Assembly (NCBI RefSeq): GCF_003334815.1
Contig: NZ_QOWO01000003.1
Length of the DNA: 64,000 bases
Direction: 5' to 3' (one strand)
From: Escherichia coli
GTDB lineage: Bacteria; Pseudomonadota; Gammaproteobacteria; Enterobacterales; Enterobacteriaceae
The notes beneath the pieces are model-generated. The model saw only the letters and a list, made by a program, of their open reading frames with translations, ran no database searches and was not told where the DNA came from. A program made the position numbers and the translations under genes. Below are positions 43,905-44,530 of the stretch, piece by piece. Within the stretch, counting starts at the first letter, position 1. Every line of letters begins with the position of its first letter.

Positions 43905-44219
43905 ATGGATGACACCAGCCGGGACCCGGCAATAACCGAAGATGAAATCAGGGCGCTGCAATTTTCTGCCGGGGATGTAGCGGAAATAGAGCAGACGATT
44001 CTCTCTTTTGTCGATGCCTGCCACACCCGTAAAGTGGCGATGGTGGTGGGTAGCACCATTAACACCCTCAAAGATCGCGATGGTAAACGGTGGGGAAACC
44101 TGCCGGATATTTATTGCGCTTATCTTATCCGATGTCTGGTTTTTCGCGGGGAATTAGTGGGATACGGCGATTTGTTTCGTATGCGCTATAGCGAAATTAA
44201 GCGACCGGTTACCTTATGA
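43905..44219 (+). CDS. yjeN: uncharacterised protein
   Basis: 104 aa ORF; 4-nt ATGA overlap with yjeO. Confidence 0.75.
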   Translation: MDDTSRDPAITEDEIRALQFSAGDVAEIEQTILSFVDACHTRKVAMVVGSTINTLKDRDGKRWGNLPDIYCAYLIRCLVFRGELVGYGDLFRMRYSEIKRPVTL

Positions 44220-44530
44220 GTGCGCGCATGTTTGTCTTATGCTGCATCTGGTTTATTGTGGCGTTCCTCTGGATAACCATCACTTCCGCGCTGGACAAAG
44301 AGTGGATGATTGATGGACGCGGGATTAACAACGTCTGCGATGTGTTGATGTATCTCGAAGAAGACGATACCCGTGATGTTGGTGTGATAATGACGTTACC
44401 GCTCTTTTTCCCTTTTCTCTGGTTCGCTTTGTGGCGAAAAAAACGCGGCTGGTTTATGTACGCCACCGCGCTGGCTATTTTCGGCTACTGGCTGTGGCAG
44501 TTTTTTCTGCGCTATCAGTTTTGTTTGTGA
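44216..44530 (+). CDS. yjeO: uncharacterised inner membrane protein
   Basis: 104 aa ORF with three hydrophobic segments. Confidence 0.75.
   Translation: MSARMFVLCCIWFIVAFLWITITSALDKEWMIDGRGINNVCDVLMYLEEDDTRDVGVIMTLPLFFPFLWFALWRKKRGWFMYATALAIFGYWLWQFFLRYQFCL

Follow-up and report, generated by a model that had tools for sequence, protein, structure and literature searches.

What do two small, overlapping genes do in the gap between a transporter gene and a mechanosensitive channel gene of Escherichia coli, and do they do it as a pair? The genes, yjeN and yjeO, were analyzed here in a 64,000-nucleotide (nt) stretch of E. coli DNA (contig NZ_QOWO01000003.1 of assembly GCF_003334815.1; hereafter the window), a DNA that matches K-12-type genomes of E. 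coli at 100% identity, and in these RefSeq labels the products "protein YjeN" and "YjeO family protein"; together with ygiZ, they belong to the remaining function-less genes of K-12. An original prediction, made from the letters of the window, had found no function assignable to either gene, which we judge too pessimistic, as functions can now be proposed. Specifically, we suggest, with about even confidence, that YjeO, like its paralogue YgiZ, is an orphan type VI secretion system (T6SS) immunity protein in a strain that has no T6SS. The genes themselves already had names and annotations; placing YjeN in DUF3658 and in the winged-helix fold is new, solid but modest, and, if the proposal is true, it would also be new that DUF2645, the family of YjeO, provides T6SS immunity and has as its counterpart a new family of Hcp-linked effectors.

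DUF2645 genes, hcp, and a candidate effector family

YjeO is a member of DUF2645: its residues 6-103 match positions 1-98 of the 98-position PF10840 model (E value of 4.3e-41), and a profile search found the family also in Citrobacter, Kosakonia, Trabulsiella, Enterobacter, Pseudocitrobacter, and Erwinia. That YjeO is membrane-embedded, as first predicted, agrees with its three hydrophobic segments (about residues 5-25, 55-73, and 79-98), which leave between them an acidic loop (residues 26-56) with an invariant Cys41 and a short loop (residues 76-81) containing RKKR, while a second invariant cysteine, Cys103, stands near the C-terminus. The family as a whole follows this pattern, i.e., a first transmembrane (TM) segment, an acidic loop (net charge -5 to -8) with one Cys, a second TM segment, a short basic loop, a third TM segment, and a short Cys-bearing tail. 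Read with the positive-inside rule, the charge distribution predicts that the acidic loop, the C-terminus, and both cysteines of YjeO face the periplasm.

The neighborhoods of DUF2645 genes were the most telling. Seven different genomic contexts have a DUF2645 gene directly 3' of a gene for a protein of about 236 amino acids (aa), of a family that is not encoded in the window: the yjeM-mscM slot of Citrobacter, the epmA-mscM slot of Kosakonia, a tandem cassette of the E. coli GF3-3 type, a LysR-GST locus of Erwinia iniecta, megaplasmids of Rahnella, plasmids of Serratia, and the ygiZ locus of E. coli. The two genes abut or overlap by 1-4 nt in most of these contexts, with a gap of 7-23 nt in two, and in Citrobacter and one E. 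coli record (L030) the junction is the same ATGA that joins yjeN to yjeO. An eighth case, on Cronobacter plasmids, combines a member of the ~236-aa family with a 98-aa, 3-TM protein that falls below the Pfam DUF2645 threshold. Overall, Pfam DUF2645 matches eight of the nine partner proteins, among them YgiZ at 3.1e-10; when the YjeO alignment was compared by hhalign with the Hcp- and plasmid-linked members, the two matched at 96.7% (E value of 3.2e-10). A ~236-aa gene followed by a DUF2645 gene was found in 45-49 E. coli genomes, and the order in GF3-3 is yjeM, yjeN, yjeO (frameshifted), a remnant of the insertion sequence (IS) IS630, a 237-aa gene, a DUF2645 gene, and mscM.

The link of the family to T6SS genes comes from hcp, which adjoins in four contexts, as a tblastn search of plasmids brought to light. 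In Rahnella aceris and R. victoriana, and likewise on the conjugative Serratia fonticola plasmid pR28_75, hcp, the ~236-aa homologue, and DUF2645 follow one another in that order; in Serratia JSRIV002, hcp flanks the ~236-aa/DUF2645 pair on the opposite strand; and in an E. coli mdaB-qseC record (L037, positions 2989-4520), hcp and a ~237-aa gene are followed by a DUF2645 gene that is ygiZ, the second DUF2645 gene of K-12 and a paralogue of yjeO. Across a population survey of 5426 complete E. coli genomes, all of which match the flanks of the yjeN-yjeO stretch, hcp, the ~237-aa gene, and ygiZ were found together in 1262; K-12 has ygiZ alone, and O157:H7 has none of the three. The yjeO slot shows full, orphan, and empty states analogous to these. 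One genome carries an IS1 insertion in the island at the ygiZ locus. The replicon behind the mdaB-qseC record (NZ_MG591698.1, a 353-kb "plasmid" of E. coli PN43) also carries the chromosomal genes parE, mdaB, ygiN, qseBC, and ygiW and is probably misassigned or misassembled. The hcp2B island of avian pathogenic E. coli (APEC) lies at a different locus.

The ~236-aa proteins are candidate Hcp-carried effectors, possibly resembling lytic transglycosylases. They have polar N-termini and no signal peptide, and a mass of about 27 kDa fits the role of Hcp cargo; examples are WP_000834030.1, from the ygiZ locus of E. coli, and WP_001061059.1, from the yjeM-mscM slot. Four motifs are conserved (E77-x-G-G, S112-x-G-x4-Q119, H-L-R, and R188-Y-N-R-G), of which the first, second, and fourth are invariant and in this order in the eight sequences, and they resemble those known from family-1 lytic transglycosylases (E-S, GLMQ, and AYNAG). 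The region around the Glu gave a weak PHROG "transglycosylase" match in two of the eight (E values of 0.03 and 0.36), and the SLT family itself (PF01464) gave no Pfam match even at E ≤ 10. The possibility that the ~236-aa protein is a long form of YjeN was rejected, as the two have no motifs in common.

The layout of hcp, ~236-aa gene, and DUF2645 gene, together with the full, orphan, and empty states, is what leads us to propose YjeO and YgiZ as orphan T6SS immunity proteins. Mechanistically, the yjeM-mscM slot would be a recombination hotspot holding small accessory cassettes built around a DUF2645 gene, and DUF2645 would take the immunity position of Hcp-effector-immunity islands (hcp, ~236-aa protein, DUF2645). 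YjeO would expose its acidic loop of ~30 residues and its C-terminal tail, with one conserved Cys each, to the periplasm, and YjeO and YgiZ would, on the periplasmic side of the inner membrane, bind and neutralize an effector that competitors inject and that presumably acts on the envelope. K-12 is without a T6SS, and orphan immunity genes have been described in E. coli (PMC6730261); with neither effector nor secretion system, K-12 would have retained the "antidote" alone. YjeN would be an unrelated gene captured upstream, and its translation would probably drive that of yjeO through the ATGA overlap. Because the gene upstream of yjeO is yjeN and not an effector gene, YjeO, if an immunity protein, would be an orphan.

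A dispensable, separable cassette between yjeM and mscM

Both yjeN and yjeO are real genes and not chance open reading frames (ORFs), because they are under purifying selection, YjeO has a Pfam match, and YjeN has 179 relatives. The anatomy given in the original prediction was borne out, namely two 104-codon ORFs that share an ATGA, as were the gene names and the yjeM and mscM flanks, which agree with the RefSeq annotation (Table 1). Conservation of the pair beyond a narrow clade, the lack of which the original prediction had named as its own refutation, was not found: intact, the pair occurs only in Escherichia, with the whole yjeN-yjeO stretch present in 2148 of the 5426 complete E. coli genomes and, outside E. 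coli, only in E. albertii and in isolates that bear the name Escherichia sp. Taken singly, yjeN was found in 2153 and yjeO in 3021 of the E. coli genomes, which amounts to both genes in ~40%, yjeO alone in ~16% (about 870 genomes), neither in ~44%, and yjeN alone in essentially none. In Salmonella enterica, the same syntenic slot mostly holds yjeN alone, and in some strains yjeO alone. Where Salmonella has yjeN alone, a sequence like the repetitive extragenic palindromic (REP) elements stands in place of yjeO except for its first ~20 nt; in one such locus (L005, positions 5990-6520), palindromic repeats of the REP-like kind lie on both sides of yjeN and take the place of yjeO. The commonly annotated 125-aa Salmonella YjeN begins inside the REP, whereas translation probably starts at MNDSSRDP, for a protein of 106 aa; the S. 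arizonae type strain (L013) has a frameshifted yjeN. Throughout, mscM is kept in every genome examined, whatever the state of the cassette. The two genes are therefore a dispensable, separable cassette in a variable slot and not a conserved pair tied to mscM, and their position beside mscM reflects a shared insertion or recombination slot, not a shared function. The functional unit of yjeN and yjeO that the original prediction implied is not supported, since the genes are separable and other DUF2645 genes have a different upstream partner.

Within E. coli, the alleles fall into two deep haplotypes over the 3' end of yjeM and yjeN (window positions 43,800-44,219 against 1600-2031 of record L003), with synonymous divergence (dS) between haplotypes of 0.30 for yjeN, 0.09 for yjeM, and 0.12 for yjeO. 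The last ~40 nt of yjeM exist in two versions in the haplotype alignment, and the C-terminus of YjeM accordingly reads …QWAVE or …ELALD. Such deep divergence at this place implies an old recombination or import. The allele alignment also revealed independent deletions of the cassette in each of the two haplotypes: E. coli Nord58, of the K-12-like haplotype, has lost most of yjeN (L001, positions 1655-1755), and E. coli A31 and F11, of the other haplotype, have kept no more of yjeN than about 55 nt of its start, frameshifted. The Nord58 remnant is a 12-codon mini-ORF (MCYSEIKLRVIS*) that begins at the codon for Met93 of YjeN and whose end still overlaps yjeO by ATGA, by which the coupling of yjeO to an upstream ORF may have been preserved. 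Many database "homologues" of the pair are frameshifted alleles. Among them, the YjeO alleles P0086, P0103, P0106, and P0121 diverge at ...WRKN, i.e., at a run of seven A (A7), which could be a slippage-prone site of yjeO inactivation; one protein cluster that diverges at the A7 run was seen on 73 contigs.

Intact alleles tell of constraint. Pairwise ratios of nonsynonymous to synonymous divergence (dN/dS) among E. coli haplotypes, E. albertii, and Salmonella were 0.10-0.20 for yjeN and 0.02-0.21 for yjeO, and YjeO is 98-99% identical in amino acids across the E. coli haplotypes despite a dS of 0.12-0.22. Between K-12 and Salmonella, dN was 0.23 for yjeN and 0.29 for yjeO, with 0.076 for yjeM and 0.067 for mscM, so that the amino acids of the cassette change 3-4 times faster than those of the flanking genes. 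We count this fast divergence of yjeO (dN of 0.29 against about 0.07 in the flanks) under purifying selection (dN/dS ≤ 0.21) in favor of an immunity function.

As regards expression, translational coupling, also raised in the original prediction, gained support. No Shine-Dalgarno-like sequence was found in the 25 nt 5' of yjeO, which together with the stop-start overlap makes it plausible that translation of yjeO is coupled to that of yjeN. A hairpin with a 13-bp stem directly follows the yjeM stop; the second E. coli haplotype (CUVET) has a hairpin of other sequence at the same place (L003, about 1670-1700; RNAfold folding free energy [dG] of -24.6). That a hairpin was kept despite the sequence change suggests a conserved RNA structure, which could act as a stabilizer or a partial terminator. 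A generic promoter and terminator scan of the locus did no better than on shuffled sequence, Rfam gave no match at the locus, and base composition bore no signature of a foreign island (GC content of 0.48-0.53 across the cassette). The mechanically called ORF of yjeM has a GTG start at 42,309, 14 codons 5' of the annotated start (MPHTIKK…), and it is the annotated start that matches all orthologues.

Table 1. Annotated and predicted features from yjeM to mscM, in window positions
Feature	Positions	Strand	Evidence
yjeM, glutamate/GABA-family transporter; upstream boundary of the slot	42351..43853	+	NCBIfam NF011775 at 3.6e-259, RefSeq annotation
Hairpin with 13-bp stem and no U-run, directly 3' of the yjeM stop	43858..43888	+	RNAfold dG -25.3
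AGGA, Shine-Dalgarno-like, 6 nt 5' of the yjeN ATG	43895..43898	+	read directly from the sequence
yjeN, 104 aa, ATG start; soluble, stand-alone divergent DUF3658 winged-helix domain (predicted)	43905..44219	+	
ATGA overlap, shared by the stop of yjeN (TGA) and the start of yjeO (ATG)	44216..44219	+	
yjeO, 104 aa, ATG start; DUF2645, predicted inner-membrane protein with 3 predicted TM segments	44216..44530	+	
A7 homopolymer within yjeO, where natural frameshifted alleles diverge	44437..44443	+	
Hairpin between the convergent yjeO and mscM; probable shared terminator	44526..44555	.	RNAfold dG -16.4
mscM, gene of the miniconductance mechanosensitive channel, convergent with yjeO; bounds the slot downstream and lies outside the cassette	44559..47882	-	ORF, annotation

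Family and fold of YjeN

The predicted solubility of YjeN fits its grand average of hydropathy (GRAVY) of -0.15 and isoelectric point (pI) of 5.3. No informative match to YjeN itself came from Pfam, NCBIfam, PADLOC, PHROGs, or PDB sequences, and Pfam, including DUF3658 (PF12395), gave no match even at E ≤ 10. An exhaustive search with a hidden Markov model (HMM) profile of YjeN recovered 179 relatives at E ≤ 1e-3, which either stand alone, at ~100 aa, or form the C-terminal domain of a longer protein (160-320 aa), and 24 of 25 of these longer relatives contain PF12395 at E ≤ 1e-3. By hhalign, the YjeN alignment matched that of 30 stand-alone relatives at 99.9% (E value of 2.8e-32, 99 columns). 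An AlphaFold2 model from a 59-sequence alignment (mean predicted local distance difference test [pLDDT] of 94.6, predicted TM-score [pTM] of 0.86), which replaced a mediocre one from a shallow alignment (pLDDT of 67.5), has the topology a1-b1-a2-a3-b2-b3 expected of a winged-helix fold, and Foldseek matched it to DUF3658 proteins in AFDB50 with TM-scores of 0.7-0.85; against the PDB, nothing was found at E < 1e-3. From the profile search, hhalign, the model, and the AFDB50 matches, YjeN is a divergent, stand-alone DUF3658 protein with a predicted winged-helix fold.

DUF3658 occurs as the C-terminal domain of DUF1835-DUF3658 proteins or as stand-alone proteins of ~100 aa. With the latter, YjeN aligns end to end and has in common the motifs RKVAMVVG, PD-x-FYA-x-RVR-x-LV, and RMRYSEVR as well as the predicted fold; unlike DUF3658 at large, it lies below detection by the Pfam HMM and is confined to a single syntenic site in Escherichia and Salmonella. 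Compared with winged helix-turn-helix and related proteins (PadR, MarR, and Fur; the cullin WHB; the ORC/Cdc6 WHD; Roquin ROQ), YjeN is 7-17% identical, a likeness at the level of the fold only, which does not discriminate among DNA, RNA, and protein binding, and the protein is acidic overall. Its conserved basic residues (R42, K43, R76, R81, R92, and R94) are compatible with binding but not diagnostic of it. Literature searches on DUF3658 returned nothing relevant.

Elsewhere, YjeN-like genes stand in variable regions, i.e., among IS elements, near toxin-antitoxin (TA) genes, or after arrays of small membrane ORFs, in a thin taxonomic census of 13 loci drawn from a narrow-pattern scan of reference genomes. 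Two of them adjoin immunity families of polymorphic toxins, CdiI_3 (8.5e-23) and DMP19 (2.9e-22). None outside Escherichia has a DUF2645 neighbor; the search for one turned up only an unrelated ORF of 88 aa with 3 TM segments, in a metagenome-assembled genome (MAG). In this gammaproteobacterial MAG (L015, positions 600-2120), a run of BrnT/BrnA-like TA genes is followed by a DMP19-like gene (PF14300), a YjeN-like DUF3658 ORF, and then the 88-aa ORF, a layout that mirrors yjeN-yjeO superficially, its membrane protein being unrelated to YjeO. At another locus (L039, positions 990-5300), a YjeN-like gene comes after one whose 492-aa product combines polymorphic-outer-membrane-protein repeats with a choice-of-anchor Q domain, and an array of four small multi-TM ORFs of no family lies upstream. 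YjeN itself may be either a small regulator or, like YjeO, an orphan binder of the immunity type.

Weighing the readings and comparison with known systems

Several observations count against YjeO as an orphan immunity protein. Linkage to hcp does not extend to the yjeM-mscM slot, next to which no hcp was found in any genome examined; in the window, the place directly upstream of yjeO, where a cognate effector gene would be expected, is occupied by yjeN, for which no T6SS link was found either. The ~236-aa family had no match in Pfam, NCBIfam, PADLOC, or PDB sequences, and its putative effector activity derives from a likeness to transglycosylase motifs and from the two weak PHROG matches. Its only solid library match, obtained for all eight proteins, is to PHROG 11932 (1e-23 to 1e-83), an entry without a function, through which a phage-derived role becomes possible. 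The reported 2.6-fold rise of yjeO upon sigma-E overexpression (PMC2731931) hints at an endogenous envelope role, and literature searches on DUF2645, on ygiZ with T6SS, and on mdaB with hcp returned nothing relevant, nor did the papers searched mention the ~236-aa effector family.

That YjeN and YjeO form an envelope or osmotic-stress module working with YjeM or MscM is unlikely. It would account for the overlapping and probably coupled genes, for the sigma-E response just mentioned, for a yjeM-yjeN-yjeO transcript suggested by RNA-seq (PMC4168707), and for the listing of yjeN under osmotic regulation and stress response in a text-mining paper (PMC9976479), but 60% of E. coli genomes do not have the pair, although every one of them has yjeM and mscM, and each gene persists intact without the other. 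DUF2645 genes also occur at unrelated loci with a different partner, YjeN-like genes elsewhere have neither a DUF2645 nor an MscS neighbor, and no sigma-E-like promoter was found upstream of yjeN (best match 8/12). Since the cassette varies while mscM does not, and since cassettes of the same type occur at unrelated loci, the link to MscM and osmotic stress implied in the original prediction was rejected. A domesticated phage lysis or superinfection module, in which the ~236-aa protein would be a muralytic enzyme, DUF2645 a holin- or antiholin-like partner, and YjeO a leftover, is improbable as well: the PHROG 11932 matches, the muralytic-like motifs, and the small 3-TM partner speak for it, but a tblastn search with the ~236-aa protein found nothing at E ≤ 1e-3 among 50,697 phage genomes, no phage genes lie in any of the contexts, and hcp adjoins in four of them. 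The gene order also counts against it, as the holin gene of phage cassettes usually precedes the endolysin gene.

We find it equally improbable that the two genes are decaying, functionless remnants in K-12 whose overlap is of no importance today. Some 44% of E. coli have lost the locus, by independent deletions in the two haplotypes, and frameshifted alleles are many, including those at the A7 run and the yjeN of the S. arizonae type strain; against this, dN/dS stays at 0.02-0.21 between intact alleles, even across genera, YjeO has hardly changed between haplotypes, and the genes are transcribed (PMC4168707, PMC2731931). A TA-like or abortive-infection pair, with YjeO as a membrane-depolarizing toxin and YjeN as its winged-helix antitoxin or repressor, is very unlikely. 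A small winged-helix protein and a small hydrophobic protein from overlapping genes, at a locus polymorphic for presence and absence, would suit such a pair, and some YjeN-like genes do lie near TA genes (BrnT/BrnA-like and Unstab_antitox). However, yjeO persists intact and under purifying selection without yjeN in ~16% of E. coli, some Salmonella, and other genera, which would be difficult for a toxin that nothing neutralizes and for which the TA reading was rejected; moreover, PADLOC gave 0 matches for both proteins, the genes occur separately in many genomes, and YjeN is acidic.

Orphan T6SS immunity is the reading we retain for YjeO and YgiZ. More broadly, and as a tentative suggestion somewhat short of an even chance, DUF2645 would be an unrecognized inner-membrane T6SS immunity family directed against new, Hcp-linked, lytic-transglycosylase-like effectors of ~236 aa, with K-12 carrying two orphan copies as acquired defense and YjeN perhaps a further immunity-type or regulatory part. 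If true, two y-genes (yjeO and ygiZ) would acquire a role open to testing, an effector-immunity family would be newly defined that about one in four complete E. coli genomes has at the ygiZ locus, and K-12 would offer a clean example of a T6SS-less commensal or laboratory strain that retains acquired defense against the toxins of its neighbors. Even if the immunity idea is wrong, YjeN stands as a DUF3658 protein with a confident winged-helix model, and the two genes stand as a dispensable, separable cassette and not an MscM partner, which should end osmotic speculation from position alone.

Among known systems, the closest parallels are orphan T6SS immunity genes and Hcp-effector-immunity islands, such as the arrays of Vibrio cholerae and the Hcp-ET islands of E. 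coli (PMC6730261). As in these, the DUF2645 gene lies just 3' of a candidate effector gene, often overlapping it, beside an orphan hcp; strains vary among the full set, immunity gene only, and nothing; the amino acids diverge fast; and the gene is retained without effector or T6SS. Unlike classical orphan immunity genes, which lie in or beside T6SS clusters, DUF2645 genes sit in housekeeping intergenic slots, and yjeO of K-12 is preceded by a winged-helix gene and not by an effector remnant. The ~236-aa family, for its part, recalls the family-1 lytic transglycosylases (SLT) and the muramidase or transglycosylase effectors of T6SS, i.e., the Tge families and a SleB-like effector (PMC11148199), in the order of its Glu, S-x-G-x4-Q, and R-Y-N-R-G motifs and in having no signal peptide, and it differs from SLT enzymes in having neither a Pfam SLT match nor a PDB sequence match.

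Small inner-membrane immunity proteins with 1-4 TM segments, such as Cai and ImmE1, which act against pore-forming colicins, and the Cmi of colicin M, neutralize toxins at the periplasmic face and are encoded beside the toxin gene. A DUF943 immunity protein likewise acts against a colicin-M-like T6SS effector (PMC11148199). The partner motifs of DUF2645 are transglycosylase-like, not pore-forming or lipid II-degrading, and no sequence relationship was detected between DUF2645 and Cai, ImmE1, Cmi, or DUF943; what YjeO-family proteins have in common with them is a small size, a predicted inner-membrane location, and a gene encoded beside that of a candidate toxin.

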